From: Nitrospiria bacterium
GTDB taxonomy: Bacteria; Nitrospirota; UBA9217
Assembly (NCBI GenBank): GCA_919901555.1
Contig: CAKKPG010000012.1
Coordinates: 10,654 to 74,653, forward strand
Direction: 5' to 3'
Length of the DNA stretch: 64,000 nucleotides
Position numbers and translations under genes: made by a program. The notes beneath the pieces were generated by a model. The model saw only the letters and a list, made by a program, of their open reading frames with translations. It did no database searches and had not been told where the DNA came from. Shown piece after piece: positions 18,277 to 38,280 of the stretch; the first letter of the stretch is position 1; every line of letters begins with the position of its first letter.

Positions 18277-18342
18277 AATTCCTCCAAAGACCTTGTTCCG
18301 CTGTCCATTTGTACGACCTGATATTCTTTTCAGGCGGTATGA

Positions 18343-18789: not shown

Positions 18790-18812
18790 AGTATCGACCT
18801 CCTTCACAAATT

Positions 18813-22276: not shown

Positions 22277-22630
22277 ATGAAAACTGCCAAACTGCTTGTC
22301 GTGCTGGGGGAGAAAATACGGGAGGTAAGGAAAGGGAAAAAGCTTTCCCAGGAACGGCTTGCCGAACTGTCGAATTTGCACCCGACATATATTTCCGACA
22401 TCGAAAACGGCAAGGTGAACGCCTCCCTCTACAGCTACTATCAAATTGCTCAAGCCCTTACTATCCCGCTGTCCGAACTTGTCGTATTGCCTCAACCAAA
22501 GGCTGAACGACAAATCGAATTCAAGCTTACGGAGTTATTCAGCCAAGCGAGAGCTCTCGACAGAAAAAAGAAAGCCGTATTCATAGCGGCTGCCCGTGGT
22601 CTTCTTTCAGGGATCGATGAAGTGCTGTAG
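22277..22630 (+). CDS. XRE-family helix-turn-helix transcriptional regulator (divergent from cassette 1)
   Basis: 117 aa. LGEKIREVRKGKKLSQERLAELSNLHPTYISDIENGK is a canonical HTH_3. Confidence 0.8.
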   Translation: MKTAKLLVVLGEKIREVRKGKKLSQERLAELSNLHPTYISDIENGKVNASLYSYYQIAQALTIPLSELVVLPQPKAERQIEFKLTELFSQARALDRKKKAVFIAAARGLLSGIDEVL

Positions 22631-22697: not shown

Positions 22698-23573
22698 CTA
22701 TGTCTCCCCTCGCTCGCGGAACAGCCGCGACGCTCTTGCCCGCAGCGTGCATACGGGGCAGCCTCCTCTTCTGTATCTATCGATGATTCTTTCTCGATAT
22801 TCATGCCCTTTCCGGCATTTCCACCATACGAGGCGCGTGGAAAATGGGGAGACGTCCTTCGGCGTCCAGGTCCCGTTCTTCGCAGAATGCCACTCGCGGG
22901 ACAGCCACGGCGCTTTGGCCTCAAGGCAGTTCTCCTCGGCCGGCCTTCGCCCTGAACAGTAAGGGCATCCGTCTCCTTCGCTTCTGTTCTCTACAACAGA
23001 TTGCCATTCATGACCTTTTCGGCATATCCACCAGACTTTTTTGTTGGATTTAGGGAGAACATCCTTCGGCGTCAAAGGAGCATTCTTCGTATGATGCCAC
23101 TCGCGGGCAAGCTTTGGATCTACGGCCTGAAGGCAGGTATCAGCGGTTGCTTGTCGTCCTGAGCAACAAGGGCACCCGTAACCGGAGGTCCTTCTATATA
23201 AGGGGGCCGGCCACTCATGCCCTTTCTTGCACACCCACCAGACTTTCCTGCCGGAGCCGGCAGTGACATCTTTCGTCGTCAGAGGAGCATTTTTCGTCGG
23301 ATGCCACTCCCTGGCCAGCTTCGGATTTACGGTTTTTAGACAATTGTCTTTATTCACTCTTCGTCCAGAGCAATATGGGCAGCCTTCGTCTCGGCCTCTG
23401 TCCGAGATGCGAGCATCCCACTCATGACCTTTATCGCAGAGCCACCAGACTTTGATATGCGCGCCAGGGGTCACATCCTTCGGCGTAAGCGGTGCGTTCT
23501 TCGTGGGGTGCCACTGGCGTGCGAGCGCCCTGTTCACTTTAGCGAGTGTAGGTTTCACGTTCTGTTTTATCAT
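22698..23573 (-). CDS. Protein of four tandem treble-clef zinc-ribbon repeats (DUF4379-like)
   Basis: 291 aa. Four repeats of about 63 aa: LAREWHPTKNAPLTPKDV...KVWW.C.KGHEW.......GCPYCSGRR. Its ATG overlaps the stop of the upstream 527-aa ORF (ATGA). Confidence 0.7.
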   Translation of the reverse strand: MIKQNVKPTLAKVNRALARQWHPTKNAPLTPKDVTPGAHIKVWWLCDKGHEWDARISDRGRDEGCPYCSGRRVNKDNCLKTVNPKLAREWHPTKNAPLTTKDVTAGSGRKVWWVCKKGHEWPAPLYRRTSGYGCPCCSGRQATADTCLQAVDPKLAREWHHTKNAPLTPKDVLPKSNKKVWWICRKGHEWQSVVENRSEGDGCPYCSGRRPAEENCLEAKAPWLSREWHSAKNGTWTPKDVSPFSTRLVWWKCRKGHEYRERIIDRYRRGGCPVCTLRARASRLFRERGET

Positions 23574-25096
23574 GCAATGTTACTGGCTTTGGTGAGTTCG
23601 GTTATCTGATTGCCTGAATCTGCAACCAGATAAAGAGTATGCGCACCGTCTCCCCTGAGGGTCACGCCGATTGTCCCGGTGCGGACCTCCGTGCCCGTAA
23701 GGCCGGAAATATTTCCGGTCTGGAGGAGCGTCCCGCCAGAGGCGGGGTCCCCGTCGTAGAGAGATATGGTAAATGCCCCTGTCTCGGACTCGCCCAGGTT
23801 TCTGACCTTGTATTCCAGAGTGAAGGCAGTTCCGGCACTCGGAACATAGGTCGAAGGCTTGAGGTCTTCGGAGTAAACGGCAATATCAGGTTCGGTTGCT
23901 ACCCAGATGCGGGATGAGGATTTGTTGTCACTCTCTGATGTTTCGGAGATGGTATTGTCCGGGTCTGCGACAACGAAGATCGTCTTGCCGCCGGTGCCGG
24001 TAAAGGATTGAGAGATGGATGCTTGAGACGATGAATTGACGGATAAAGAAGGAAGGATTTGATCGACACCAATTTGCATGCCGCCGGCAGAGGGATCTCC
24101 AAGATAAAACCGAACAACAATATCCGATGCACTGTCATAGCCTGAATTGCGAACGTTTGCGGTGAGCGTTATCGTCTCCCCTTCTCGCGGCATGGGATTG
24201 GTGAACGATACCGATGCTACTGAAAGGTTTGGTCGTACACTCGCCAGCGCACGAAGAGCCAAAGCGGTCGAGTAAGGATCATCATTCCAACTGCCATTAG
24301 CTGATTGACTTGTAGTCAGATAATTTACCGTTGCAGGAACGACCGCTGAAACATTCGATCCGCTTGCTATCAGGGCATCAAGCGCCAGAGCTGATTCGTA
24401 AACTTTTGACGGCGAACTTCCAAAACCACCATCGGCATTCTGCTTTGAAAGCAGATAAGCGACAGCCTTGTCTATTGAGCTTTGGACATTGAAGGTAACA
24501 TTATTGTATGACGCTAACATTTGAAGTATAGTAGCAGTCAAGTAAACATTGCTGACCGCGTCATCCTTGAATCCCCAGCCGCCATCATTTTTTTGATTCG
24601 AAGTAAGATAATTTATCGCTTGGAAGAGAACGCCAAAGTCGGAATAATTTGCTGAACGAAGAGCTTGCAAGGCAAGGGTGGTATCTAAAATGCCGTCGTC
24701 AAAACCCTTATGTGTCCCCCAGCCGCCAACAACAAGATCGCGATAATAGAGCAGCACTTCGACTTCAGCGGATGCATCCATACCTGCTCGTTTGAGCGCG
24801 GCAATCCGCCGTGAGAGATAATCCGTTGGCGAAACAGCCTGGCTGCTGAGCCACGTAAGACCCTCAGTATACGTCGAACTCGTTGGCTCAAAGACATAGA
24901 CAGCATCCAGCGCAGCGGATGTGGAGTAGTACTCAGTCGTCTCTACAGCGGGCCAATTACCGGTAGTGGTCTGGGCGGAATTGAGCCACCTGAGGCCTGT
25001 CGGAATTTGCGGTATTTGAGCGGATGCAAAAGAGGTAAATAAAAACATTAAGAATGAACCAATCAGAAAGCTCAAGCGACTTGCTCTTTTGAACAT
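23570..25096 (-). CDS. Truncated paralog of the giant protein (signal peptide, alpha/alpha-toroid domain and about 2.5 CARDB modules); possibly a decayed copy
   Basis: Start MFKRASRLSFLIG at 25096 with a GGAGGAGG SD. About 80 aa of the mature N-terminus are identical to the giant protein. It ends inside a CARDB module (LYLVADSGNQITELTKASNIA-stop) where the giant protein continues. Confidence 0.6.
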   Translation of the reverse strand: MFKRASRLSFLIGSFLMFLFTSFASAQIPQIPTGLRWLNSAQTTTGNWPAVETTEYYSTSAALDAVYVFEPTSSTYTEGLTWLSSQAVSPTDYLSRRIAALKRAGMDASAEVEVLLYYRDLVVGGWGTHKGFDDGILDTTLALQALRSANYSDFGVLFQAINYLTSNQKNDGGWGFKDDAVSNVYLTATILQMLASYNNVTFNVQSSIDKAVAYLLSKQNADGGFGSSPSKVYESALALDALIASGSNVSAVVPATVNYLTTSQSANGSWNDDPYSTALALRALASVRPNLSVASVSFTNPMPREGETITLTANVRNSGYDSASDIVVRFYLGDPSAGGMQIGVDQILPSLSVNSSSQASISQSFTGTGGKTIFVVADPDNTISETSESDNKSSSRIWVATEPDIAVYSEDLKPSTYVPSAGTAFTLEYKVRNLGESETGAFTISLYDGDPASGGTLLQTGNISGLTGTEVRTGTIGVTLRGDGAHTLYLVADSGNQITELTKASNIA

Positions 25097-25160
25097 AGCT
25101 CCTCCTCCGACACCGATGATCCCAGCATGCATGATAACCACAGGCGCAAGCATAGAAAAA

Positions 25161-25484
25161 TTATCGTTTATAAAAAATAAACAAAAAAAGTAAAATCAGA
25201 ACAAAAAATATTATTGAGTATAAAATAACCTCTGCAGGTTTATAGCCCTGTTGTAACTTCAGAATAAGGGGATGCCGTTTTTCTTTAAGCAGAGCGAGAA
25301 GAATAGCGGCCAATGCGATAACGGATAATATAACAATTGCAAAAGGATCGTTCCGAGATTCAAAAATTCCTAAGCCAACAAAGAAAAGTGAAAAAAAGAA
25401 AATAATTATATTTTTGTTTGCTCGCAAGTAGCGAAAAAACAGGTACAAAGCAATCGATAGATTCAGAAATGCTATTTTATTCAT
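25161..25484 (-). CDS. Small AT-rich multi-TM membrane protein (cassette 2, third)
   Basis: 107 aa, hydrophobic. Overlaps the upstream ORF by 8 nt (translational coupling). Confidence 0.5.
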   Translation of the reverse strand: MNKIAFLNLSIALYLFFRYLRANKNIIIFFFSLFFVGLGIFESRNDPFAIVILSVIALAAILLALLKEKRHPLILKLQQGYKPAEVILYSIIFFVLILLFLFIFYKR

Positions 25485-25884
25485 TTTTCTGATCCCCCAT
25501 TATCTTATTGTCTAATCGTTCGTTTATAGTTTTCAAAAAAGACTCAAGTATCAATACAGCAGCACAAACTATCCAGACTTCGAATAAAACAAAAGGGAAA
25601 ATACTTTTAGGGAAATTTTTTAATAAGTCGTCTGGTAATAACCAGAGAGAGAGCATTGCAATGCTTACTATGATACAAGAATAAATTAATTCTTTCTTTA
25701 TTTGTCGGATTTTAGTGAGTGCTGTGCTGTTGCTAGCGATTATTGACTTAAAATCTTTTGTCTTATACATGAGTGAAGACGATAGACTATTAATCAACTT
25801 TTGCCTTTGATATTTACTAACCCTGACGGCAAAAATTGAAAAAAGGATTACTATTACTCCACTAAGCAATACGAATATCTTCAT
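25477..25884 (-). CDS. Small AT-rich multi-TM membrane protein (cassette 2, second)
   Basis: 135 aa with 3-4 TM segments. AT-rich. Confidence 0.5.
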   Translation of the reverse strand: MKIFVLLSGVIVILFSIFAVRVSKYQRQKLINSLSSSLMYKTKDFKSIIASNSTALTKIRQIKKELIYSCIIVSIAMLSLWLLPDDLLKNFPKSIFPFVLFEVWIVCAAVLILESFLKTINERLDNKIMGDQKNE

Positions 25885-25926
25885 TATATTATTTCACCAG
25901 CCAAGCGCCTACAGTTTTTGCGCCGT

Positions 25927-26349
25927 TTAATAGCTTTTCCGTGTTGCAAACCTGAAGTGTTGCTTGAAGCTAAAGTCTTCTACTCTTAATAATCTGTAGA
26001 AATAAATTATCGACGCCAATATGCTGAATGCCCCTGCGATAATAATTAAGAAAGCAAATACATTATCGATATCACGAAGTGAGATAAAGAGATTCCCGTC
26101 AAAAGTCGCAAATATTTTTGCAACTATAAAGTGCGCTAAGCTATTAAGCTCCATAAATATAAATGCAAATAACCAAAAACGATGCTTAATTAAAACGGCA
26201 AAAAAGAAAAAAATTAAAAGCGAAAATAAATAATCGCTCATATCATATTTTTTTAGTGGTACAACACTAAAAATTAATAGGAAGTTCCAAACGAATGCAT
26301 AGAAATTAACCAAAATTAAAACCTTTAAAATAACTCTCTCTTTCATCAT
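25927..26349 (-). CDS. Small AT-rich multi-TM membrane protein (cassette 2, first)
   Basis: 140 aa, 4 TM. Lies immediately downstream of the transglutaminase-like gene. Confidence 0.5.
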   Translation of the reverse strand: MMKERVILKVLILVNFYAFVWNFLLIFSVVPLKKYDMSDYLFSLLIFFFFAVLIKHRFWLFAFIFMELNSLAHFIVAKIFATFDGNLFISLRDIDNVFAFLIIIAGAFSILASIIYFYRLLRVEDFSFKQHFRFATRKSY

Positions 26350-26379: not shown

Positions 26380-29300
26380 TCACTGAACAGGGGGGTCGCA
26401 GTGAGTAGCTAATTCTCTGCATTTTGCGCCCTGATTAACGGCCCATGCCACCATACCTGCGCCAATCAGTATTGCAGCAGCATATCCGAACCACCCTCCA
26501 AAGAATTGCATTACCATCGCTATTCCTAAAAATCCTTTAAACAGTTTCTCCAAGCTGCCACTAACAACGAGACCAACACAACCCCAATATTCACTACTAT
26601 GAAAATATTTTATACAATTGCCACCTGCCTGACTAATATAGGTTTCCTCGAGTTCCGCTGCAGCTGCTTCTGTTACTAAGAAGTGTAACGCGATATTAAC
26701 AAAGGGGGCCAGGAGGAAGCCTCCACTTGTCCCTCCGCTTATCATGTACGCTCCGGCACCCGTATTGGGATCTATAATTATATAGCCACACCCGTCCCAG
26801 CCGTTAATATTTATATTCCTTTTCGGAACCGCAATTATTTTTCCCGCATTCAGAGCATCTTGAATATGTTTTTTGACGTCAGCGGCGACTTGAAGTTGTG
26901 AATTAATTATGCTTGCATTTTCCTGATTAATACTATAAATCGGTATGCCCTGCTCACTTGCTATCTGTAACGCTTTAACCGCTGAAAGCCCCTCAACTGA
27001 ATTGCTTGGTGTAGAAAATATCTGCTCTGGGGTTCTGCTTTCGAAAGCAGAAGACACCCCGCCTGATGCGAGCATGTATTCTCTCAATTTGTTCATATCT
27101 CCGTCTTTGCTAAACACGGCTTGCATAATCCTGTCCACATCCATCATCATACCCTTGGAACTGACGGTTTTTGGTATGCCAAATATTTCCTCGACATTCA
27201 TGTGCAAATAGAACATTCCTACAGATGATGTCCTGTATCGAATCACATTTTTTACCTTAGCTGTAATTTCATCAACGGTATCGAGGTCGGCGAAATAATT
27301 AATAGCTGTAAAATACAGCAAATCACCGACAAGAGCATCTTTCGTAAGAGTGGTATAATCTTTTGTCACTAAAAGATTTTTCGTTTCGGCGAGTTTGTCC
27401 TTTATATTTCTCAAAACCTTCTCAGCAATCTTACCTGTATTTAAACCTATACCAAAATATTCACCAGCTTGAATTATATTATCGATACGGCTCACACCAA
27501 AACCCGGCTCAGTAAGCGACATGGTGAACGATTGTGCGCTTCCCATAGTGACAGAAGAACCAGTTGCCACAACCAGGCCCTCTATGCGGAGTTCTGGCTT
27601 GAGATTGATGAGATACGCTGGCAATGAGCCGGGGGTTGCTTGAAGATATGTTTCTATAATGGTTTTATCGTTGGCTGTAGCCGGTGAGAAGGAGAGCGTG
27701 ATCTTCTTTCCAGCTATCTGAGGCAGGCTGGTGCTATAGGAAAGTCCAGCACTCATGCCAGTGGGGTCGGGAATGCTGAAGCTGATGGTCGCGCGGAGAC
27801 TGTCGGGAATCTGTGCAAACTGCAATCCAACAAGGATGGTCTTATACGGCAGCGTCTCGGGCAGGATTCCGAATTCCTGTTTAATGATCTCCTTCTTCCC
27901 GAGAACATCGCCGACAGTGGCGTTGGGATAGTTTTGGTTGATGTAATTCTGAACCTGTGTTTGATAATCCTGCATGGTCTGCTGGACCAAAGCGGAGTTC
28001 ACATTCGTTACATACCCTTCTGTTTCGTTGATAGTGGCTGTTGCCTTGATCTGGTCTGCCAAAGCTTGGGCATCAAAGGGCACAGCTGTCTTGATATCGA
28101 TTCCCTGGGTGTAAGTGTACTGCTTGTAGCTCGGGTCGAGCGGCACCCAGGTATCGCCCTGTTTGTGGACCGCCCCGCGACTTGGAATATAGTCGATCCA
28201 AGCCCTTACGTAAACATGTTCGAGTTGTACGGCTTTATATGTTCCGCCGCTTGTCTTCATGAGTGTTACTGGTATGCCATTGGTGGCGAGAATCGTTCCA
28301 GCCATCTTTGGGTCAGTCACACCACCGACGAGGTTCATGGCTTTTTCGATGGGAATTTCGATTGTGGAATATTCGTAATGGGAGTATACCCCTGATACTC
28401 TGAGGAGAGCGATGAGCAAACTGGCAGTGTCGGTGTCGTTGCAAATCCTTGACTGAAGGCACTGGTCCGCCCCCTGGATACTGCCATAGGTGGGTGCGTA
28501 TTCGATGTTATTGCGAACCCATTCGTAGATTCTGAGCGGTGAGTAACTGAGTTCCTGGGCCTTGGCCTTGATGTCGTCAGTGAACTGTATTTCGATCCCG
28601 TTTTCGGCGAGGTCTTCGGCTGTCGGCGCGTCGCCCGCTTGCGCAAGGAGGAATGATGATGAATCGGAGAAAGCTAATTGTGATTGCAAGTTGAGGATTT
28701 CAGATTTCGGATTGAGACCACCCCTCACCCCCGCCCTCTCCCCTGATGGGCGAGGAATTTGGAAAGGAACGTCGCTCGCAGTTTCATTGAATGCCAGGAG
28801 AACGGGTTTGTATTGCCGGCGGCTCGACAGAAGATCAGGCATCAACCGGATTTCGGCAACCTTCCGTTTGTTCTGCGTCTTCTGTTGTGGAAAGTCACGC
28901 TCGAAGTCTTCCCGTTTCAAGCGCGGTTCGCGCGTCTTTGTAACCTTTCTGGCTTTAAACGGCAAATTGTTCGGATCAAGTTTTTGATGGCGCGAGGGGC
29001 CTTTGGTCTTTTCGAGAAATACCCTGACCTTCCCGGCTGCAATCCTGGCTTCGTCCCCTGTCTTTGCTTTTTCTACACCGTCCAGGTGGGTCCTGAGAGC
29101 GCTCAGGCCCTCACCGTATCTCTTCACGAACGCCCTCTGCCGCTGTTTAATCACCTCCGGGAGGTTTTTGATCTTGGTTTCGGTTTCCTTGAATTGCCTC
29201 TGTAATTCCGTGTCAAGCGTCTCCAACTCGCTCTTCTCGGCTTTGAGCTTCTCGCGGTCCTCTCCTGCTTCTCCTATCCGGTTGAGGCTCTCCCGGAATT

Positions 29301-29478
29301 TTTCTTCGGTCGATTTTCGTCTTTCCTGTCCGCTGGTCGCCGCCTTTTGCCCTTTCGTCCCCCTGGACCCCGCCGCGGCATAAGAGGCTGGAATTTGGAA
29401 TAAAGGCCCGAAACACCATAAATACAGCATGAGGGTGATACTGGCCGTGATTTTCAAATTCATAGAATAAGTCCGCAT
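26380..29478 (-). CDS. Membrane-anchored transglutaminase-like domain protein, cassette 2
   Basis: 1032 aa, a paralog of 18813..21935 with the same coiled coil, TGase core (ICNDTDTASLLIALLRVSG / HVYVRAWIDY / WVPLDPS) and C-terminal TM region. Confidence 0.8.
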   Translation of the reverse strand: MRTYSMNLKITASITLMLYLWCFGPLFQIPASYAAAGSRGTKGQKAATSGQERRKSTEEKFRESLNRIGEAGEDREKLKAEKSELETLDTELQRQFKETETKIKNLPEVIKQRQRAFVKRYGEGLSALRTHLDGVEKAKTGDEARIAAGKVRVFLEKTKGPSRHQKLDPNNLPFKARKVTKTREPRLKREDFERDFPQQKTQNKRKVAEIRLMPDLLSSRRQYKPVLLAFNETASDVPFQIPRPSGERAGVRGGLNPKSEILNLQSQLAFSDSSSFLLAQAGDAPTAEDLAENGIEIQFTDDIKAKAQELSYSPLRIYEWVRNNIEYAPTYGSIQGADQCLQSRICNDTDTASLLIALLRVSGVYSHYEYSTIEIPIEKAMNLVGGVTDPKMAGTILATNGIPVTLMKTSGGTYKAVQLEHVYVRAWIDYIPSRGAVHKQGDTWVPLDPSYKQYTYTQGIDIKTAVPFDAQALADQIKATATINETEGYVTNVNSALVQQTMQDYQTQVQNYINQNYPNATVGDVLGKKEIIKQEFGILPETLPYKTILVGLQFAQIPDSLRATISFSIPDPTGMSAGLSYSTSLPQIAGKKITLSFSPATANDKTIIETYLQATPGSLPAYLINLKPELRIEGLVVATGSSVTMGSAQSFTMSLTEPGFGVSRIDNIIQAGEYFGIGLNTGKIAEKVLRNIKDKLAETKNLLVTKDYTTLTKDALVGDLLYFTAINYFADLDTVDEITAKVKNVIRYRTSSVGMFYLHMNVEEIFGIPKTVSSKGMMMDVDRIMQAVFSKDGDMNKLREYMLASGGVSSAFESRTPEQIFSTPSNSVEGLSAVKALQIASEQGIPIYSINQENASIINSQLQVAADVKKHIQDALNAGKIIAVPKRNININGWDGCGYIIIDPNTGAGAYMISGGTSGGFLLAPFVNIALHFLVTEAAAAELEETYISQAGGNCIKYFHSSEYWGCVGLVVSGSLEKLFKGFLGIAMVMQFFGGWFGYAAAILIGAGMVAWAVNQGAKCRELATHCDPPVQ

Positions 29479-29742
29479 GGTTTGTTCTCCATTTATTCAG
29501 TTTTTAAAGCAAAAGCTAAAACAGGTAATGCCTGTCTGCGTGCGGTCACGCACAGGCAGGCGTTAATGCAAAAGCAGTAATTCTGATACTGATCTAATCG
29601 TGATTCGTCGAACCAGCAAATGTTGTAAGGAAGGTGCTGCTTTTAGATTGTCTTTTGTAGCATAATTTTATTTTACAGTCAATGCAAACTGCCACATCTT
29701 GACAGATTGATGAAATGGTGATATTTCCACGTATTGCCATTA

Positions 29743-29772
29743 TTTATACATGCAATAGACAGATATTGTCAA
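29743..29772 (-). promoter_or_regulatory. Candidate sigma-70 promoter for the cassette 2 transglutaminase-like operon (TTGACA-18 nt-TATAAA on the minus strand)
   Basis: The reverse complement reads ttgacaatatctgtctattgcatgtataaa. Sits about 260 nt upstream of the ATG at 29478 and would give a long leader containing the element conserved with cassette 1. Confidence 0.45.
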
Positions 29773-29830
29773 GTAATTTCTTTGTATTGCATTGTTTTCA
29801 TGACAAGCAAATGCTTCTATTATTGCACTC

Positions 29831-30163
29831 ATGAAAATCAAGAGCGCCTCTATTAAACAACAAGTGGGCTTACGCATCAAACATGTAAGAAAAACCAGGG
29901 GCCTATCTCAGGAAAAACTCTCCGAGAAGGTCGCCATGAGTTCGAAGTATTTGAGCAGTATCGAAAGAGGGAAAGAGAACCCTACTTTGGATACCTTCAT
30001 TAAATTGGCACAGGCATTGAACGTCGAAATTTCTGAATTGTTCAATTATGCCGGCGAAAAGTCCGTTCAGGAATCTAAAAAGTACCTCCTCGATTTAATG
30101 AAGGGCAGTGACAAGGAGAAGCTTGATCTCGCGGTTAAGATGCTAAGAGCGCTTTACTTGTAG
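29831..30163 (+). CDS. XRE-family helix-turn-helix transcriptional regulator (divergent from cassette 2)
   Basis: 110 aa. VGLRIKHVRKTRGLSQEKLSEKVAMSSKYLSSIERGK is an HTH_3. Confidence 0.8.
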   Translation: MKIKSASIKQQVGLRIKHVRKTRGLSQEKLSEKVAMSSKYLSSIERGKENPTLDTFIKLAQALNVEISELFNYAGEKSVQESKKYLLDLMKGSDKEKLDLAVKMLRALYL

Positions 30164-30212
30164 TTGTCCTTTTCCATTTCAAAACTCCTTTCTTATTCTC
30201 GCCGCCACGCGG

Positions 30213-32969
30213 TTACTTCTCCAGCGGCTTCAGATACCCGTCCTTATCAAGTATGATTTCGTTGCTATTGCTCTTGATTTTGATCTCAGTCTGTCCGTCT
30301 CCATCAAAATCCGAGATTACGAGAGCGCTGTCGTATGACGCGAACAGCGCATCGGGCGCAAGATTGTTCAGATACACCGGCCCCCATTTGATTTTGCCGT
30401 CATGCTCGGTCAAATAGACGCTCCCTTCCATATATTGTGCCGGAGAATACACCTGCGTAATGAGCAGAACAATCTCGGGCAAGCGATCGTCATTGAATTT
30501 AGCAATTGTATATGTGCCTGTTCCTAAGAACTTATCCACTCCTGCTGTATATCTGCCGTCGTTGTCTTTGTCTTCGAAAATGAGAATACTGGCGGAATCA
30601 GCAATCTTTGCGTTACCGGTGTTTTCGAATGCTGCTTTCACATGAGGGGACAAGGTTAAGGTCTGGCTGGTGAAGAGCATGCTTGTAAAGTTCGGCGCTG
30701 TTGGTACGTTATCGGGGCCGAGAATTTCGTCCGGCACCTTGATCTTGAGTGAGCGGATGGCCTGGTTGTTGGTCTCGTAGAGTTCGGTGACGACGCTTTC
30801 CGTGTCCGTGATGGCGTAGAACCGGTAGGTCCAGGGGACTGCGGTGAAGGTGTAGGGGAGCGTAGTTGTTCCGTCTCCCTGTATGCTGTCTACTGTATAC
30901 GTCGTTAAAAGCGTCCCTCCTGAAGCGGGGTCTCCGTCATAGAGCGCGAGGTTGAAGGCGCCCGTCTCCCTGATGCCCGCGTTGTGGACCGTGACGGAGA
31001 GGAGAACGGAGTCGCCGGAAACGGGATGGGACGGGGTAAAAGACAGGTCCGTTGCGGAAATGGTGATGTCCACCATATCGGTCATGACCCGGACCGCGGC
31101 GGTGTTGTTGCTTTCATCGGCTTCGGATATCGCGTTCGTTTGGTCAGCGATGACGTAGAGGTCATGAATGCCGGAACTGATCGTCCAGCTTGCGGTCGCC
31201 GTGTATGTCCCGCCTGAAGCGAGGGATGAGACTGTCTCGCTCTTGATGAGCGTGCCGCCGGATTCCGGCGCATTGTCGTAGATGTCCACGGTAAAGGAGC
31301 CTGCGTCCGCGTATCCCTGGTTCCGGATGATCGCGCTGATCTGGACAGTCTGGTTGGCTGTGGGCCGGCTGGGGGTGAGGGTGATTTCGCCGGACGTAAC
31401 CGCAAGGTCAACCTGTCCCTGCAAGCCCCCGACGGTGACCGTGACCGTGCCGGTGTTGTTGGTCTCGGATAATTCAGGGATCAGGGTTCCGGGGTCAGCG
31501 GTCAGGTAAAGCGTATGCGAGCCGTCGCCGGTAAGCGTGACGCCGAAAGAGCCCGTGCGGACCGCTGTGCCCACAAGACCGGAAATATTTCCGGTCTGAA
31601 GGAGCGTCCCGCCAGAGGCGGGGTCCCCATCGTAGAGAGATATGGTAAAAGCCCCTGTCTCGGACTCACCCAGGTTCCTGACCGTGTATTCCAGTGTGAA
31701 CGCAGTTCCGGCACTCGGAACATAGGTCGAAGGTTTCAGGTCTTCGGAGTAAACGGCAATATCCGGCCCCGTCGCGACCCAGATGCGGGCAGAGGATTTG
31801 TTGTCACTCTCTGAGGTTTCGGAGATGGTATTGTCCGGGTCCGCGACCACGAAGATGGTCTTGCCGCCCGTGCCGGTGAAGGATTGTGTGATCGAGACTT
31901 GAGATGATGAATTGACGGATAAAGAAGGAATGATTTGATCAGAACCAATTTGAGTTCCGCCAGCAGAAGGGTCACCGAGATAAAAACGAACGATTATATT
32001 AGAAGCGTTGTCGAATCCCGTGTTCTTTACTGCAGCAGTAATCGTGATGGACTCATTTTCTATCGGCATTGACTTTGAAAGGGAAATATCACTTGATGAA
32101 ATAACAAGATTAGGCCTCGCGCTCGCGAGCGCGCGCAAGGCAAGCGCCGTGGAATAGGGATCGTCATTCCAACTGCCGTCCGATAACTGATTTGTGGTGA
32201 GATAGGCGGCGCCGTTGGATACAACGGTTGTGATATTGGCCGCTCCGCTCGAAATCAATGCGTCGAGCGCTAAACCGGAATCGTAAACCATAGAAGGACT
32301 GGAGCCGAAACCACCGTCCGGATTCTGTTTCGTGAGGAGATACGCAATTGTCCTGTCAATCGAACTTTGAACGTTGAAGGTGACGCTATTATATGAAGAC
32401 AAGGTTTTCAAGACTGCGGCGGTTGCGAAAACATTGCTGTCCTCACCGGCCGCGAAGCCCCAGCCGCCGTCCGAATTTTGATTCGAGGTAATGAAATTTA
32501 CGGCCTGAAAAAGAACAGAATAATCGGAGTAAGCCAGTGCCTGGAGAGCCTGGAGGGCGAGAGCCGTGTCCAGGATATTGTAAAAATATTCCGAATCGCC
32601 TCCCCATGCGCCGTCGGAATTGCGGTAAAGAAGCAACCCCTCTAATTCGCTGGAAGTGTCCTGTCCGGCGCGTTTAAGCGCGATGATCCGTCTCGAGAGA
32701 TAATCCGTCGGCGATACGACTTGGCCGCTCATCCACTGAAAGGCCGTGCTGTATGCAGGGTTTAAGGGATCAAGGGCATAAACAGCATCCAGTGCCGCGG
32801 CCGTGGAGTAATAATCGGTGGTCGTGACCTCCGGCCAATTTCCGGCGGACGTCTGCGAAGAATAAAGCCACGTGAGGCCGGAGGAAATTTGGGGAGATTG
32901 GGCAAAAGCGAAAGAATGTATTGTCGATAATAAGATAAAAGCAGCGATGATTTGGACGCTTTTTCGCAT
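30213..32969 (-). CDS. Internally deleted and C-terminally truncated paralog of the giant protein (cassette 3)
   Basis: Start MRKSVQIIAAFILL at 32969 with a GGAGGAGC SD. Same alpha/alpha-toroid domain and CARDB series. It jumps from ...LGTGTYTIAKFNDDRLPEIV into an FG-GAP segment that lies about 300 aa further on in the giant protein, then terminates. Confidence 0.65.
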   Translation of the reverse strand: MRKSVQIIAAFILLSTIHSFAFAQSPQISSGLTWLYSSQTSAGNWPEVTTTDYYSTAAALDAVYALDPLNPAYSTAFQWMSGQVVSPTDYLSRRIIALKRAGQDTSSELEGLLLYRNSDGAWGGDSEYFYNILDTALALQALQALAYSDYSVLFQAVNFITSNQNSDGGWGFAAGEDSNVFATAAVLKTLSSYNSVTFNVQSSIDRTIAYLLTKQNPDGGFGSSPSMVYDSGLALDALISSGAANITTVVSNGAAYLTTNQLSDGSWNDDPYSTALALRALASARPNLVISSSDISLSKSMPIENESITITAAVKNTGFDNASNIIVRFYLGDPSAGGTQIGSDQIIPSLSVNSSSQVSITQSFTGTGGKTIFVVADPDNTISETSESDNKSSARIWVATGPDIAVYSEDLKPSTYVPSAGTAFTLEYTVRNLGESETGAFTISLYDGDPASGGTLLQTGNISGLVGTAVRTGSFGVTLTGDGSHTLYLTADPGTLIPELSETNNTGTVTVTVGGLQGQVDLAVTSGEITLTPSRPTANQTVQISAIIRNQGYADAGSFTVDIYDNAPESGGTLIKSETVSSLASGGTYTATASWTISSGIHDLYVIADQTNAISEADESNNTAAVRVMTDMVDITISATDLSFTPSHPVSGDSVLLSVTVHNAGIRETGAFNLALYDGDPASGGTLLTTYTVDSIQGDGTTTLPYTFTAVPWTYRFYAITDTESVVTELYETNNQAIRSLKIKVPDEILGPDNVPTAPNFTSMLFTSQTLTLSPHVKAAFENTGNAKIADSASILIFEDKDNDGRYTAGVDKFLGTGTYTIAKFNDDRLPEIVLLITQVYSPAQYMEGSVYLTEHDGKIKWGPVYLNNLAPDALFASYDSALVISDFDGDGQTEIKIKSNSNEIILDKDGYLKPLEK

Positions 32970-33043
32970 AGCTCCTCCGGATATCTCAATGAATATCTTC
33001 AATGCAGAGAGACAAAACATACTACCTCAAACGTCACTCGATT

Positions 33044-33544
33044 TTATAATGGTCGATTAAGCAACGAATACGTTAATTTCGCGCGAGACGCTCGCTTTCT
33101 AATCTCTGCTATTAATTCATTCAAGTATTTTGCGCGGTTCGCTTTCATTAAGTCGAATGAAGAAAGCGAAGGTTCGTTCGCTGGTTCAACCATGCCAATA
33201 GTAAAATTGCCTTTGTCAGTATATATTTTGTATCTGAAACTGGCTTTTAACGGAGTTAGCATTTTAATTTCTCTGACGCCTGTCCACTGCGCAAAAACTC
33301 TTTTTTTCCGTCCATTAAACAAAATTCCGTTTTCGTTCACCTCGATAAAGGTGTGTTTTTTGTTTAAGTATGCAAAAACGGGCACGATGATGCTTAATAT
33401 AGCCAAGATGAGAAAAAATAATTTACCCGACAAAGATATTTCTCTTATTGCAAAAAATATGGAAATTGTTGCCGCAACGATTGAAAAGCCAATAAATATC
33501 GCTTTAAAATCTTCGACGCTATGATAGTCATATCTTTTTTTCAT
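33044..33544 (-). CDS. Small membrane protein with two N-terminal TM helices and a soluble domain, possibly bacterial PH-like (cassette 3)
   Basis: Start MKKRYDYHS at 33544 with an AAGGAG SD. AT-rich. Confidence 0.5.
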   Translation of the reverse strand: MKKRYDYHSVEDFKAIFIGFSIVAATISIFFAIREISLSGKLFFLILAILSIIVPVFAYLNKKHTFIEVNENGILFNGRKKRVFAQWTGVREIKMLTPLKASFRYKIYTDKGNFTIGMVEPANEPSLSSFDLMKANRAKYLNELIAEIRKRASRAKLTYSLLNRPL

Positions 33545-33561
33545 CTTTCCGCTCCTTAGTT

Positions 33562-36500
33562 TCAATAACAAGGATTATTATAATTAATATCGCCAAACCA
33601 AAATTGGTAAGCGTCTATTATAACGGGAGCACAAGGAAGCGCACACCACCACGCCCTGCCTCTCGCAGATGTTTGTACTAATTTTACAAAAAACTGAAAA
33701 AGGATACTCGCAGCGAAAATGATCACTGGAAACCAAACTGCAAGTACTACAAGGAAGAAGGCCAGCATAAGAGATATCACTGTCATAATTGCTATAAACC
33801 AAATGTCAGCACTTGTCATGGACGACCAATTTAAAGCATTTCCTGATTCTAGGTAAGAATCAATCCAGCTTAAAGCTTCAACACTAAATGCATATCCAGC
33901 ACTTGGCGCGCCTATGTTGCAAAACATGAGGAGGATATCTTTTAAACAATCAGTCAACGCTTGCCAACCACCATTTGAACCTCCGCTGATTTTATATGCT
34001 CCAGCACCAGTAAATGGATCCTGAATTATATATCCTACACCAACCGACCCATAGTAGGATGCTGCCCTTGCGGGTACCGTTACAATCTTGCCAGCTCCGA
34101 TGGCATTATTAATGTCAGCTATAACATCAGATGACACCTGGAGTTTTGGAAGAATTGTTGCTATATTATTTGATGTGATAGTGTAAATGGGTATTCCAGC
34201 CTTATTTGCCGCATTAAGCAGGCTTATCGTCGAAATGGCAGGTATCTTTGAAAGTGTTTCTGCATGATTATGTTCTAAGCCTGATGATATATAGCCTGCC
34301 GTCTCCATGAATTGTTTTGTCTTTTCTTGGTCACCTGTTTTTGAAAACACAGTGAAAATATTTCTGTCGACATCGATTCCATAACCTTCGAGATCAAAGT
34401 TCTTAGGAATAGAAAAAAGATAAGTAACCGAAGGCACTGCAGATGTGATGGCCGCTGAGATGCCCTTTGCAGCGGTTACACCATTAAGCCATTCCGCTAT
34501 CCCAAGCATCTTGCCTTGTGCATAAAAATAATAGAGCCCTTGCAGCCATAACCAATCTCCTATCAATTTATCTCGTTCTACAACTGGCTGTTCTCCATTA
34601 TTCAATTGAGCCTTCATTGCTTCAAGAGTACTTTTAAATTTAAGTGCATTAGTCTCCAAAATACTATACAAAAACCGTTGTGGTTCCACGACGATTGCAG
34701 AATATCCACCGGCATCAAAAACATTTTGAACTCGATCAGTACCTATTCCTGGATCATAAAATGCCATGATGAAGTCATGTGAAACGCCTAATTGCATTTG
34801 TGGACCAGACGCTACCGTCGCACCGTCGATCTTTATCACGGGACGTAGGGTTAGGAGATAGGGCGGAACTTTCGTCACATCTCCCCCGTAACGATTCAGC
34901 AAATCAGAATCAGCCTGCGTAGCGGGATCATATGACAACGTGATCTTTTTCCCCGCAATCGATGGGAGCTGTGATGTATATGAGAACCCGCTATTTGAGC
35001 CGGACATATCAGAAATTTCAAATGTTAATGTCGCTCTGTACTTTGCTGGTACATCAGCGAATTCCGAGCCAATTTGAATAGTCTTGTACGGCAGGGTGCC
35101 CATGAGGTAAGGAAATTCCTGTTTGACGATCTCTTTTTTACCGATGACGTCTCCTACCGTAGCGTTCGGATGGTTCTGGGTGATGTAATCCTGGACCTGG
35201 GTCTGGTAGTCCTGCATGGCTTGCTGGATATACGCTGAATCGACGTTCGTTACATATCCTTCCGTTTCGTTGATCGTCGCCGTGGATTGGAGCTGGCTTA
35301 CGAATGTTTGAGCATCAAAAGGCACGGCAGAACTGATGTCGATACCCTGGGTGTAGGTGTATTGCTTGTAACTGGGGTCGAGCGGTATCCAGGTATCGCC
35401 CTGCTTGTGGACCGCGCCGCGTGAAGGGATATAGTCAATAAAAGCTTTTACGTAAACATGCTCCATCTGAACATTTTTGTAAACGCCGCCGCTCGTTTTC
35501 ATGAGGGTGACCGGTATGCCGTTCGTGGCCAGTATCGTTCCTGCCATCTTGTAATCGGTCACGCCCCCCACCCAGTTCATGACTTTATCAATCGGTATTT
35601 CGACGGTGCCGTACACGTACCGGGCGGAAATACCGGACGTGCGAAGCAAAGCGATTAGCAAGCTGGCAGTGTCGAAATCGTTGCAAATCTTCGTCTGGAG
35701 ACACATGTCGGCGCCCTGGATGGAGCCATAGGTAGGGACGAATTCGATGTTGTTCCTGACCCACTCGTAGATTTTGACCGGGCTGTATCCGAGTTCCGCT
35801 GCCTTGGCCTTGATATCGTCAGTAAATTGAATTTCGATCCCATTTTCGGCGAGATCGTCAGCAGTAGGCGCGTCTGCCGCCTGCGCAAGAAGGATCGGTG
35901 TTGAATCGCTGAGGGCTAATTGGGGAATGAAATCATTTATAGATGTCGATGAGGATGCTGAGAGTCGGTCTGATCGAAATGAAACCGGCTGATCACTAAA
36001 CGTCCCACTATCATTGAATGCCAACTGAATGGGCTTATGCTTGATGCGTGTTAATAAGCCTGTCCCCGAATAGTTTAATCGGGGATGATCATTCGCGGCA
36101 ATAGTATTTTCAACGCTTGCGAGCTTCTTAGCTTTTTTGTGTGACGGAAAATCTTTTTCAAACTCCTCTTTTTTTAACCTCGGCGCTCTTTCCTTGGCCT
36201 TGACGGTCCTGAACGGCAGCTTGTTCGGGTCGAGCGGAACGTGCTTCGTTGGAGGCTTGGTTTTATCGAGATGGGCCTTGGCTTTTTTCAGCGCCTCTCT
36301 TCCCTGTTTACTGCCTACTGCATACTTCCCTACTTCTTCCAGGTTGGCCCTTAACTCTGCAAGGTTGTCTTCGTAGTGCTTTACGAATTTATAATGCCGG
36401 TCGAGGATTTCCTTCGGCAGCTTCGCGTCTTTGAGCTTCTTCTCAGTTGCGGCGAATTCCGCTTTTAGCTCAATATCTATTTTCTCAATCTCTGTTCTCT

Positions 36501-36813
36501 TTGCCTTTACCTCCGCGACCTCAGCGGTGATGTCTGCCGTCCCTTCGACTTTGCTCAGGGCAAGCTTCTCCTGCGCTTTGTGGATCTTCTCGCGGACCGC
36601 CTCCAGCGCCTTCTCGAACTTTTCTTCCGGCCTCTGGACCAAGGCAACCGTGTTGCCGTCCTTTACGCCGACGCGGTCGGCTCGCTCCATATTCCGCACT
36701 CGCGGCGGCTCCGCCGCCCATACCACGGCCGCATACAGCGGCATGTACGTCCAGCAGAAGAAAAACAACGTAAGTGCAGAAACCATCTTCAAAATCCGAG
36801 AAAAAGTCCGCAT
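33562..36813 (-). CDS. Membrane-anchored transglutaminase-like domain protein, cassette 3
   Basis: 1083 aa, a paralog. Core IYEWVRNNIEFVPTYGSIQGADMCLQTKICNDFDTASLLIALLRTSG (Cys), HVYVKAFIDY (His), WIPLDPS (Asp). Confidence 0.8.
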   Translation of the reverse strand: MRTFSRILKMVSALTLFFFCWTYMPLYAAVVWAAEPPRVRNMERADRVGVKDGNTVALVQRPEEKFEKALEAVREKIHKAQEKLALSKVEGTADITAEVAEVKAKRTEIEKIDIELKAEFAATEKKLKDAKLPKEILDRHYKFVKHYEDNLAELRANLEEVGKYAVGSKQGREALKKAKAHLDKTKPPTKHVPLDPNKLPFRTVKAKERAPRLKKEEFEKDFPSHKKAKKLASVENTIAANDHPRLNYSGTGLLTRIKHKPIQLAFNDSGTFSDQPVSFRSDRLSASSSTSINDFIPQLALSDSTPILLAQAADAPTADDLAENGIEIQFTDDIKAKAAELGYSPVKIYEWVRNNIEFVPTYGSIQGADMCLQTKICNDFDTASLLIALLRTSGISARYVYGTVEIPIDKVMNWVGGVTDYKMAGTILATNGIPVTLMKTSGGVYKNVQMEHVYVKAFIDYIPSRGAVHKQGDTWIPLDPSYKQYTYTQGIDISSAVPFDAQTFVSQLQSTATINETEGYVTNVDSAYIQQAMQDYQTQVQDYITQNHPNATVGDVIGKKEIVKQEFPYLMGTLPYKTIQIGSEFADVPAKYRATLTFEISDMSGSNSGFSYTSQLPSIAGKKITLSYDPATQADSDLLNRYGGDVTKVPPYLLTLRPVIKIDGATVASGPQMQLGVSHDFIMAFYDPGIGTDRVQNVFDAGGYSAIVVEPQRFLYSILETNALKFKSTLEAMKAQLNNGEQPVVERDKLIGDWLWLQGLYYFYAQGKMLGIAEWLNGVTAAKGISAAITSAVPSVTYLFSIPKNFDLEGYGIDVDRNIFTVFSKTGDQEKTKQFMETAGYISSGLEHNHAETLSKIPAISTISLLNAANKAGIPIYTITSNNIATILPKLQVSSDVIADINNAIGAGKIVTVPARAASYYGSVGVGYIIQDPFTGAGAYKISGGSNGGWQALTDCLKDILLMFCNIGAPSAGYAFSVEALSWIDSYLESGNALNWSSMTSADIWFIAIMTVISLMLAFFLVVLAVWFPVIIFAASILFQFFVKLVQTSARGRAWWCALPCAPVIIDAYQFWFGDINYNNPCY

Positions 36814-36831: not shown

Positions 36832-37191
36832 TTATTCCGTCTTATTCATCAGACGAATCCTTACACGATATCTATCCACGGTAATCAGAGCTTTCTGGTT
36901 TATAGCATCTTGATGCGTTTCGATCAATCGGAGCAATATCTTTCCTTGATCCCTCGCGGGGATATCCACCAGCCGTATGATTGTCGAGTGCGGCTTGCCG
37001 AAAACGAAGACGAGTTCGCCAAAATCCTTGTCGGCTGTGACCAAAATAGAGTCTTCGTCGACTGAGCGCTGAATAATGGCCTCATCACCCGGGTCTTTTC
37101 CCGTCTCGGGAATCCACACGACATCGAAGCCCGCCCCTCTGAGTGCTTTGACGGCAAAGCTCGATATGCAACTGTCGACAAGGAACTTCAT
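36832..37191 (-). CDS. DUF5615 PIN-like domain protein (putative toxin)
   Basis: 119 aa starting MKFLVDSC...GFDVVW...ILVTADKDFGEL. Follows the DUF433 gene with a 2-nt gap. Confidence 0.7.
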   Translation of the reverse strand: MKFLVDSCISSFAVKALRGAGFDVVWIPETGKDPGDEAIIQRSVDEDSILVTADKDFGELVFVFGKPHSTIIRLVDIPARDQGKILLRLIETHQDAINQKALITVDRYRVRIRLMNKTE

Positions 37192-37193
37192 CT

Positions 37194-37436
37194 CTAAGCT
37201 ACGAGAGCGGGCTCGATCCGCTCATGAGATACCATCCGATGGGCAAATACGAGGCACGCCTGAATATCTTCCTTTTCCAGGAAAGGATACGCCTCTAACA
37301 ACTCTTCGACAGTTGAACCGGCTGCCATCATCCCGAGAATATGTTCGACGGCTATCCTCATGCCACGAATGATCGGCTTCCCTCCGAAAATTGCGGGATT
37401 GAACGTGATACGTTTTAGAATCTCTTCCTCGTGCAT
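37194..37436 (-). CDS. DUF433 domain protein (putative antitoxin)
   Basis: 80 aa. FGGKPIIRGMRIAVEHILGMMAAGSTVEELLEAYPFLEKEDIQACLVFA is the DUF433 signature. Confidence 0.7.
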   Translation of the reverse strand: MHEEEILKRITFNPAIFGGKPIIRGMRIAVEHILGMMAAGSTVEELLEAYPFLEKEDIQACLVFAHRMVSHERIEPALVA

Positions 37437-37499: not shown

Positions 37500-37620
37500 G
37501 TTTTTATTGTCTCTTTCCGATGTCTCGGATATCTGATTGTCAGGATCAACAACGACGAAGATGGTCTTCCCGCCTGTGCCGGTGAAAGAAGCTGCTACTA
37601 AGGTCCTTGAGAGTCCTGAG
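37500..37620 (-). pseudogene. About 40-codon relic of a CARDB-module gene of the giant-protein family
   Basis: The minus-strand translation ...SFTGTGGKTIFVVVDPDNQISETSERD matches the paralogs (QSFTGTGGKTIFVKVDPDNIISETNEMDN). It is bounded by a stop upstream and non-coding DNA downstream. Confidence 0.6.
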
Positions 37621-37627
37621 TTCTAAG

Positions 37628-38050
37628 TCATTTTATCTGATTGCGGTTGGCCAAGTCCACCTTTATCTTTGAGTGCTCGATGGATAGGTCTATCCACTTT
37701 TCGGCCAGTTTTTTAAACTTCTTATAGGTCTTGATCTGCTCTCTCAGTTCAGCGACATGGTGCGTCCTGACATAGTTGGTCTTGCTTTTCATCTTATGCG
37801 TGTAGCTGAGTTGGTAGAACTCCCATTTTTTGTCCTTAACATTCCGGTACAGCTTGGTTAGTGAGCCTGGACGCATTTCGTCGATTCCCATCAGCTCCCG
37901 TTTGATCTCTTCTATCTGCTGTTTAATCCGCGCAAGCCTTTTGTCCGCCATAACCGCTCCTCTCTGTCTAGGTGAAGGGCATGGGGACAAAGGGCATGGG
38001 GACAGGTCTTGAAATATAAGAAACTGCCTTTTCAACGGGCTGTTGCCCAA
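37628..38050 (-). CDS. Small hypothetical protein (DUF6788-like), paralogous to the ORF at 44649..44993
   Basis: Similar to 44649..44993 in ...GSLTKLYRNVKDKKWEFYQLSYTHKMKSKTNYV..ELREQIKTYKKFKKLAEKW. Start uncertain (MADKRLARIK at 37951 plausible). Confidence 0.4.
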   Translation of the reverse strand: MGNSPLKRQFLIFQDLSPCPLSPCPSPRQRGAVMADKRLARIKQQIEEIKRELMGIDEMRPGSLTKLYRNVKDKKWEFYQLSYTHKMKSKTNYVRTHHVAELREQIKTYKKFKKLAEKWIDLSIEHSKIKVDLANRNQIK

Positions 38051-38159
38051 ATCACTTTACGGCAAATATGTCATTCTGAGCGTAGCGAAGAATCCCGCAT
38101 TTACAATACGATGGCAGACCCTTCACTGCGTTCAGGGTGACAAAATCGGTTTGGGCAAC

Positions 38160-38280
38160 AGGCCGTCAAGACTTGACCCCAAATGCCAAAAATGCCAAAA
38201 TGCCAAATGCTTTGACCCCAAATGCTTTGACCCCAAATGCTTAAATGCTTACATGACCCCAAATGCTTATTCTGCCTCTT
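38160..38280. repeat. Tandem simple repeats: ccaaaa(a)tg three times, then ccccaaatgctttga three times
   Basis: caaaaatgccaaaaatgccaaaatgccaaatgctttgaccccaaatgctttgaccccaaatgctt..., non-coding. Confidence 0.7.

Follow-up and report, generated by a model that had tools for sequence, protein, structure and literature searches.

The 64,000-nucleotide (nt) stretch of DNA analysed here, called the window, belongs to a Nitrospiria bacterium (NCBI GenBank assembly GCA_919901555.1, contig CAKKPG010000012.1, positions 10,654 to 74,653 of the forward strand). It carries three tandem cassettes on the minus strand, each composed of a gene coding a transglutaminase-like (TGase-like) protein, one or more small hydrophobic open reading frames (ORFs) and a gene coding an alpha/alpha toroid followed by CARDB domains. 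The toroid-CARDB protein is a giant of 2972 amino acids (aa) in cassette 1, o527 in cassette 2 and o935 in cassette 3. The nature and origin of o935, which an earlier note on this DNA took for an internally deleted derivative of the giant, are the subject of this work. The cassettes, flanked by housekeeping and signalling genes (purF, purB, ribBA, CheA, histidine kinases), have the following composition.

33562-36813, minus strand: cassette 3, gene of the TGase-like membrane protein o1083 (1083 aa; Pfam Transglut_core, 47.7 bits)
33044-33571, minus strand: cassette 3, small hydrophobic ORF o175; probable start at ATG 33544 (166 aa) with an AAGGAG site before it
30213-33020, minus strand: cassette 3, o935
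26380-29478, minus strand: cassette 2, TGase-like gene o1032
25161-26349, minus strand: cassette 2, three small hydrophobic ORFs
23570-25153, minus strand: cassette 2, o527
22698-23573, minus strand: cassette 2, DUF4379 zinc-finger gene (Pfam E = 3.7e-81)
18813-21935, minus strand: cassette 1, TGase-like gene o1040
18343-18840, minus strand: cassette 1, small ORF o165
9358-18276, minus strand: cassette 1, the 2972-aa giant

An assembly of Hainich groundwater (ENA ERZ1292619) recovered window positions 36394-20213 independently at 99.98% identity, so that the three-cassette arrangement is not an artefact of one assembly.

The cassette-3 gene and its giant neighbour

The ORF at 30213-33020 is real. 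Its 935 aa result from mechanical ORF calling, and the true start is likely ATG 32969, which gives a protein of 918 aa: this codon has a GGAGGA Shine-Dalgarno site 5 nt upstream and the corresponding Met is the first residue in all homologs. The protein is named 'CARDB domain-containing protein' at NCBI (MEK6697672.1). The gene is organized as follows, S standing for the short form of the toroid-CARDB proteins, T for the very short form and L for the long (giant) form.

30213-32969, minus strand: S-form toroid-CARDB gene, 918 aa (ATG, Shine-Dalgarno site and homolog starts)
32898-32969, minus strand: predicted Sec signal peptide, MRKSVQIIAAFILLSTIHSFAFA, with putative cleavage before QSP (read from the sequence)
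32070-32897, minus strand: alpha/alpha toroid of the squalene-hopene-cyclase, prenyltransferase and TED-like type (Pfam, PDB matches, motif scan)
30735-32087, minus strand, approximate boundaries: four CARDB (Ig-like) domains (Pfam CARDB E = 1.9e-62, 4 stretches)
30504-30734, minus strand: N-terminal half of a fifth CARDB-like domain ending in ...FEDKDNDGRYTAGVDKFLGTGT, left side of the junction, collinear with giant residues 745-820
30216-30503, minus strand: S-specific C-terminal tail, aa 823-918 of 918, homologous to DxDxDG units 5-6 of the giant; stop codon at 30213-30215

The toroid scores 57 bits with Pfam SQHop_cyclase_C (cut-off 26.1) and 35.5 bits with TED_complement, and its sequence matches in the PDB are 8zg5, 7xqz and 2sqc. 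The CARDB family (PF07705) reaches 208 bits against a cut-off of 22.7, with PDB matches to 2kut and 2l0d. No Pfam FG-GAP family is detected in o935 at E <= 0.01. The hydrophobic N-terminus with an AxA-Q motif is kept in the homologs of o935.

BLASTP aligns o935 residues 18-839 to giant residues 1-820 (67% identity, E = 0) and residues 835-931 to giant residues 1112-1201 (45% identity, E about 2e-16), after which the ORF ends. The two blocks leave out 291 residues of the giant. The earlier note had seen o935 follow the giant through the toroid and the CARDB series and then skip about 300 aa, from ...LGTGT into ...PEIV...YL.EHDG.VKWGPV; the alignment reproduces both the collinearity and the junction. 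The corresponding segments of the giant are these.

15817-18276, minus strand: giant residues 1-820, collinear with the S-form (alignment)
14944-15816, minus strand: giant residues 821-1111, not in the S-form; comprises the latter half of CARDB5, a linker with Cys and propeller units 1-4
14674-14943, minus strand: giant residues 1112-1201, counterpart of the S tail, units 5-6 (alignment)

The left breakpoint lies in the middle of the fifth CARDB-like domain, which in the giant continues for ~55 residues more up to the end motif ...EQSETNN. The first FG-GAP region of the giant has eight DxDxDG units, at residues 905, 964, 1030, 1080, 1118, 1174, 1225 and 1272. The o935 tail maps specifically to units 5 and 6, the next-best unit reaching only E = 6e-6, and thus holds two units, one of them degenerate, where a single FG-GAP-like unit had been counted before the stop. 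Seven or more blades are needed to close a propeller ring; with two units only, the o935 monomer cannot close one. At the breakpoints the giant reads LGTGT/NTLTL (left) and DGG/ATAIG (right) and the S-form LGTGT/YTIAK. A search for short direct repeats at the junction found at most a weak G-x-T-(I/L) similarity, synonymous saturation precluding a judgement on microhomology.

An architecture composed of giant residues 1-820 and 1112-1201 followed by a stop is what would be left if o935 were a recent copy of the giant of this genome, deleted and truncated in situ as a step in the decay of the family. The presence nearby of o527 and of a relic of the same family speaks in the same sense. Both had been reported in the earlier note and both are real: o527 is 76% identical to giant residues 1-505, and the relic, given previously at 37500-37620, is placed as follows.

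37503-37610, minus strand: relic of the CARDB1 end (...SFTGTGGKTIFVVVDPDNQISETSERDNK), with stops on both sides

It spans 31-37 codons with 73-77% protein identity to o935 and the giant. A recent event is contradicted by the divergence of the retained segments, which show neither near-identity nor low dS. Synonymous differences between o935 and the giant (pS) are saturated along the whole alignment, at 0.58-0.80 in every 60-codon window, with a nucleotide identity of 51-73%. The overall synonymous divergence (dS) is about 2.0, with a ratio of non-synonymous to synonymous divergence (dN/dS) of 0.14, and the longest exact DNA match found by an exact-match scan is 23 nt. No giant-like sequence was found in the 734 bp past the o935 stop (29479-30212). 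The gene has none of the marks of a pseudogene: its frame is intact, its tail is under selection, as described below, and there is no leftover homology beyond its end.

The short-form class

A homolog search with o935 identified nine proteins of 913-949 aa (P0002-P0009 and P0012) with 97-100% query coverage and 49-63% identity. A tenth S-form, S-916 of the metagenome-assembled genome (MAG) MFD03899, is 66% identical over 921 residues. These ten S-forms are drawn from at least five other assemblies, and in a multiple alignment all are collinear with o935 from end to end along the same junction path, ...L.xG. followed by YxIxxF/L-D..-PE/VIVLLIT.... The stop is found 1-8 residues past DGYLK in nine of them, while one, S-924 of MFD03899 (DGYLW), extends further. 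The tails have in common an invariant pattern of Y-L, G, W-G-P, Y, G and D-G-Y-L (Y-L..G...WGP.Y...G...DGYL). One loop (ITQVYSPAQYMEG) is 6-7 residues longer than in the giant of the window in the seven S-forms closest to o935, four others having a shorter version. The 918-aa protein is thus collinear with a distinct and conserved short-form family that has its junction, a finding which the earlier note had itself named as one that would refute a deletion derivative.

The genetic context is also conserved: a TGase-like gene and a small membrane ORF precede the S-form, a divergent XRE-family helix-turn-helix (HTH) gene follows it and more cassettes lie beyond. On a 1.72-Mb contig of MFD03899 the first cassette comprises a TGase-like gene, a 328-aa protein, S-916, a 150-aa protein and a divergent HTH gene. 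The second has a TGase-like gene, a 297-aa protein, S-924 and a DUF4379 gene. The last starts with a TGase-like gene that bears an NlpC/P60 domain and continues with small ORFs to a 3195-aa giant. In GCA_040961615.1 the S cassette consists of a TGase-like gene, a 329-aa protein, an M48 peptidase and S-927, and the next one of a TGase-like gene that includes an M23 domain, small ORFs and a giant of 2497 aa. Tandem S cassettes are present in GCA_040960995.1 and in an ENA metagenome (loci L012 and L013). In the window the HTH gene found right after the o935 stop matches in position the one after S-916.

29831-30163, plus strand: XRE-family HTH gene, divergent, directly after the o935 stop (Pfam HTH_3 E = 9e-16)

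Conservation of the family with its junction, stop region and synteny is one reason why the reading of o935 as a recent deletion derivative fails, and an origin by recent loss from the giant of this genome appears extremely improbable.

The nine S genes that were checked as DNA, from five assemblies, all have intact ORFs (9/9). Purifying selection on the S tail is seen in the last 100 codons, where the ratio of non-synonymous to synonymous differences (pN/pS) is 0.33 for o935 with S-916, 0.25 for a pair whose synonymous sites are not saturated (pS 0.19) and 0.25-0.64 overall. With nine other S tails the o935 tail shows 48-67% identity, with that of P0012, the most divergent, 37%, and with units 5-6 of any long form 34-46%, its own giant standing at 46%. 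In neighbour-joining trees of the tail it was paired with its own giant in 0/200 bootstraps; with 96 columns these trees are too short to assess S monophyly, and just this negative result is used.

On sequence grounds it is likely that o935 is an intact member of a conserved ~920-aa S class which is an old derivative of the long form, and not a product of recent decay. Of the deletion proposed in the earlier note, an ancient derivation from a long form stays plausible; the giant of the window as its source and a recent date do not. The class would have arisen once, long ago, from a long-form ancestor and before the sampled Nitrospirota lineages split. A stretch of ~290 residues that begins midway through the fifth CARDB-like domain and reaches the start of propeller unit 5 would have been lost first, and a stop after unit 6 gained later. 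The S-form would since have been kept as a cassette of its own with its TGase-like enzyme, small membrane protein and divergent XRE-HTH gene, placed in several Nitrospirota genomes upstream of a T or a second S cassette and then of the giant (L) cassette.

The direction of this change was weighed with a profile of the S C-terminal module, which has 701 protein matches in a representative library, with long proteins of up to 5998 aa. In long proteins the two parts of the profile, CARDB5 half and propeller, match apart from each other; an uninterrupted S module that reaches or nears the C-terminus was found in four representatives only (P0012, P0121, P0122 and P0140). The library is clustered at 50% identity and folds the S-forms into few representatives, so that the family size is a lower bound. 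A second profile search with the module in a big protein index gave 7 matches, three of them extra S-tail fragments; it did not list the known S-forms and is not a census. The S architecture is best read as derived from the long form, because, of folds complete in the long forms, it has half of CARDB5 and two of eight propeller units, and because the long arrangement is widespread and the contiguous S module is confined to few Nitrospirota sequences. The opposite course, with an ancestral short form from which the giants grew by insertion and extension, would agree with a rooted tail tree in which S tails are paraphyletic to the clade of long-form units 5-6, with weak support. It would require half an Ig-like domain and two propeller units to predate the complete structures, and a module known from about four clusters to predate long forms found in hundreds of representatives; we regard it as highly improbable.

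Two sequences of the family differ from this picture. P0010 (806 aa, on a 42-kb ENA contig) follows the family through CARDB4 but ends in an unrelated tail that seems to be out of frame, and is possibly a true case of decay. The second giant gene of MFD03899, P0011 (1276 aa as called; locus L008 9995-19675), is interrupted by a 410-aa transposase-like gene beyond which the remainder of the giant is found as ORFs of 355 and 923 aa. The same transposase-like gene is also found upstream of the cassette array in MFD03899 (locus L003 1058-2290).

Exchange between paralogs and the very short form

Several results weigh against an ancient S class with a single origin. The tail tree is poorly resolved, with 30% bootstrap for S monophyly. 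AlphaFold2 gives no confident fold for the tail (mean predicted local distance difference test score, pLDDT, of 40 for the 179-aa C-terminal module with a 9-sequence alignment). In a 99%-identical strain the place of o935 behind the cassette-3 TGase-like gene is taken by a full giant. In a tree of the N-terminal ~500 residues the sequences group by genome and each of the three forms (S, T and L) is polyphyletic: the giant pairs with o527 (100% support) and S_P0002 with T_P0021 (96%), and a clade of mixed forms around the MFD MAGs has 100%. Taken alone, this clustering would fit independent, lineage-specific truncations.

The gene sequences are however mosaic. In sliding windows the giant and o527 are 98% identical at codons 61-120 and 60-67% elsewhere, o935 and o527 90-95% identical at codons 361-480 and 55-60% elsewhere, and S-916 and S-924 of MFD03899 93-100% identical at codons 541-720 and 32-34% at codons 1-120. 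From codon 720 on, where conversion with the long form does not reach, o935 resembles S-916 (73-80%) more than its own giant (33-55%); at codons 181-360 the order is reversed. Two tracts were delimited in the window.

17925-18164 and 24736-24975, minus strand: gene-conversion tract between the giant and the T-form, 240 nt, zero differences
31503-31991 and 23627-24115, minus strand: older conversion tract between the S-form and the T-form, ~490 nt, 87% DNA identity, dS 0.44

The giant and o527 have a dS above 0.7 outside the first tract, which by its sequence is a recent gene conversion, and the DNA identity of the S-form and T-form outside the second is about 62%. The 5' regions thus cluster by genome because co-resident paralogs exchange DNA, and the 67% identity of o935 to giant residues 1-820 is a patchwork left by gene conversion, not a sign of recent descent. 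Recurrent parallel deletion, in which the short form of each lineage would come from its own giant by loss at the same hotspot, has the N-terminal tree in its favour. The conversion tracts, namely the 240 identical nt and the S-916/S-924 mosaic, account for that clustering. The junction, the DGYLK motif and the nearby stop are common to the S-forms, the seven closest sharing the longer loop, and S tails are nearer to each other than to any long-form unit. Parallel deletion is accordingly considered unlikely.

The giant of the 99%-identical strain, P0268 (2967 aa), falls in the 90%-identity cluster of o935. Its gene occupies positions 10001-18904 of locus L016 (ENA ERZ2470813, NODE_20, 119.5 kb), in which three segments are distinguished. 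The first is 99-99.6% identical to window 43135-30712, includes the initial ~720 codons of the gene, which are o935-type and correspond to window 32969-30750, and is left through a patchy zone, at about codons 720-755, where informative sites change from o935-type to giant-type. The second (~1550 codons) is 99.5-100% identical to the giant of the window from about 16050 down to 11300. In the third, made of the last ~600 codons, protein identity to the giant of the window is 44-61%, and other genes lie downstream of it. A giant so placed in a near-identical strain could pass for the undeleted ancestor expected from a recent deletion; it is not, because the part past the switch matches cassette 1 and not the o935 tail, with the 3' part of this S/L chimera almost identical to the cassette-1 giant. 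The gene is either a real S/L recombinant with 14.7 kb lost between paralogs or an assembly path through repeats. A real event is weakly favoured because exact matches in the window are short (23 nt).

Other differences between the two strains are small. Two single-base differences, at window 33541 and 33610 against L016 9361 and 9429 (TT/T and A7/A6), split the 1083-aa TGase-like ORF from the 166-aa membrane ORF with its own AAGGAG-ATG; in L016 both form one ORF of 1250 aa, and the independently assembled locus L017 reads as the window does. The 130 nt at window 38036-38165 are not present in L016.

Conversion could also act to keep open the frame of a gene that has lost its function, by copying from functional paralogs. 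That o935 has exchanged sequence with o527 and that AlphaFold gives its tail no confident fold would suit a repaired remnant of this kind. The tail is nevertheless conserved although the window holds no donor paralog for it, motif and stop region are kept across genomes together with the synteny of the cassette, and o935 has its own Shine-Dalgarno site and signal peptide; such a remnant is thus very unlikely.

The protein of cassette 2 represents a second reduced format, which has the following coordinates.

23570-25096, minus strand: very short (T) form, 508 aa from the homologous Met (527-aa ORF), toroid and 2 CARDB domains

MEK6697667.1 from a Nitrospirota MAG (NCBI) is identical to o527, as is P0018, and nine further proteins of 505-541 aa are 50-66% identical to it. 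In T-forms the C-terminus lies no more than a few residues from where CARDB2 closes (...TELSKTNNTA followed by the stop). By these alignments the ~508-aa T-form is a conserved class with a conserved stop, and o527, cited before as a sign of repeated deletion, belongs to it. The stop of the T-form overlaps the ATG of the DUF4379 gene as GCATGA in the window (23570-23575) and in locus L014 (3809-3812); in MFD03899 it is the S-924 stop that overlaps the ATG of the same DUF4379 gene (locus L001 12772-12775). This treble-clef zinc-finger gene is apparently translationally coupled to the T-form. The last ~45 nt of S-924 (LNQINKSNVTNNTSR and the stop) align with the 3' end of T-form genes, which implies that an indel of about 1.25 kb distinguishes the middle cassettes of different genomes. 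The indel is old, has one edge at the terminal-strand motif of a CARDB domain and separates the S and T forms of the middle cassette. The idea of repeated deletion in this family is therefore kept in an altered form: the family was reshaped by recombination between paralogs, by conversion and by one old indel of ~1.25 kb.

Partner genes, possible roles and known systems

The S, T and L proteins carry Sec-type signal peptides according to their sequences, and o935 would be exported by Sec. The toroid more probably serves for binding than for catalysis, because motif scans did not find DxDD (D.DD) in o935 residues 1-300, the CxEQ thioester in the toroid, or any cysteine in the mature protein. 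A function as thioester trap or terpene cyclase was considered and is rejected as unlikely, since these motifs are absent.

The TGase-like proteins of the window have a hydrophobic N-terminal segment, and the Cys, His and Asp of the core are present in that of cassette 3 (motifs ICND, MEHV and LDPS). No solved relative was found for it by sequence search. The enzyme may process the S-form or anchor it in the envelope. In giant-type cassettes elsewhere, TGase-like genes with added NlpC/P60, CHAP or M23 peptidase domains were observed at these positions.

L001, 14678-18151: peptidase-bearing TGase-like gene
L014, 5493-8837: peptidase-bearing TGase-like gene
L015, 12899-16156: peptidase-bearing TGase-like gene

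None of these domains was detected in the three TGase-like genes of the window. The extra domains point to the cell envelope, and hint at a peptidoglycan-related activity of the genes that bear them.

The small hydrophobic ORFs of the window (18343-18840, 25161-26349 and 33044-33571) are very AT-rich, with a GC content of 0.30-0.36 as compared to 0.58 in the flanks. That of cassette 3 was called as 166 aa in the independent assembly (locus L017). Similarity between o165 and o175 is not detectable, and the small ORFs of the window gave no match to the 297-328-aa proteins that hold their position in the other loci compared. Besides the XRE-HTH gene next to o935, a second gene of this type follows cassette 2.

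22277-22630, plus strand: XRE-type HTH gene, after cassette 2

Both HTH genes (29831-30163 and 22277-22630) are candidate regulators of the following cassette. The CARDB1 relic adjoins a toxin-antitoxin-like pair, DUF433 (80 aa) with DUF5615/PIN-like (119 aa), and a DUF6788 gene (36832-37436 region).

The three length classes may offer the cell a choice of modules, at its surface or outside it, with one N-terminal head in common. A bolder proposal, which is rather doubtful, sees in the array recombining surface-protein cassettes in which three fixed C-terminal formats (~508 aa, ~920 aa and giant) swap one toroid-CARDB head, with the chimeric giant as a live example and the S tail oligomerising or docking to complete a propeller. 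As a paralog family with fixed length classes in which gene conversion goes on, the locus is unexceptional but well documented. The ~920-aa and ~508-aa proteins should not be annotated as pseudogenes or fragments: what seems to be a broken copy of a giant neighbour is a stable, selected length class whose likeness to that neighbour comes in part from gene conversion. A conserved multi-cassette locus is thereby defined in uncultivated groundwater Nitrospirota, every cassette of which combines a TGase-like enzyme with a toroid-CARDB protein in one of three length formats. Recombination between its paralogs can be demonstrated, and it offers a concrete target for metaproteomics and structural work.

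A full-text literature search found nothing on this gene combination, while its components have known counterparts. Cell-surface proteins of bacteria and archaea with CARDB (PF07705; 2kut and 2l0d, solved by NMR) resemble o935 in its four CARDB Ig-like repeats behind a signal peptide; in o935 these follow an alpha/alpha toroid and end in half a fifth repeat and a two-unit FG-GAP fragment. The toroid belongs at the sequence level to the superfamily of class II terpene cyclases, prenyltransferase beta-subunits and the TED of alpha-2-macroglobulin and complement. It differs from the terpene cyclases by being a single barrel of ~280 aa without DxDD, where these have two barrels, and from the TED by lacking CxEQ and cysteine. 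The tail is homologous to the integrin-alpha-like FG-GAP/VCBS propellers of giant bacterial surface proteins and has one canonical DFDGDGQTE loop, but it keeps 2/8 units and Pfam FG-GAP stays below threshold.

The pilE/pilS genes of Neisseria and the vlsE cassettes of Borrelia are paralogous surface-protein families shaped by segmental gene conversion. As in these, co-resident paralogs in the same orientation swap internal segments, which results in mosaic identity and in trees that group by genome. Here, in contrast, each copy is complete, looks expressed and has its own partner enzyme, tracts are few and mostly old, and nothing suggests programmed variation or silent donor cassettes. The partner enzymes, finally, resemble the bacterial transglutaminase-like (PF01841) membrane proteins, each cassette opening with a protein of ~1040-1250 aa that has a Transglut_core domain with Cys, His and Asp; the giant-cassette copies of other genomes differ from them by the addition of NlpC/P60 or M23 domains.

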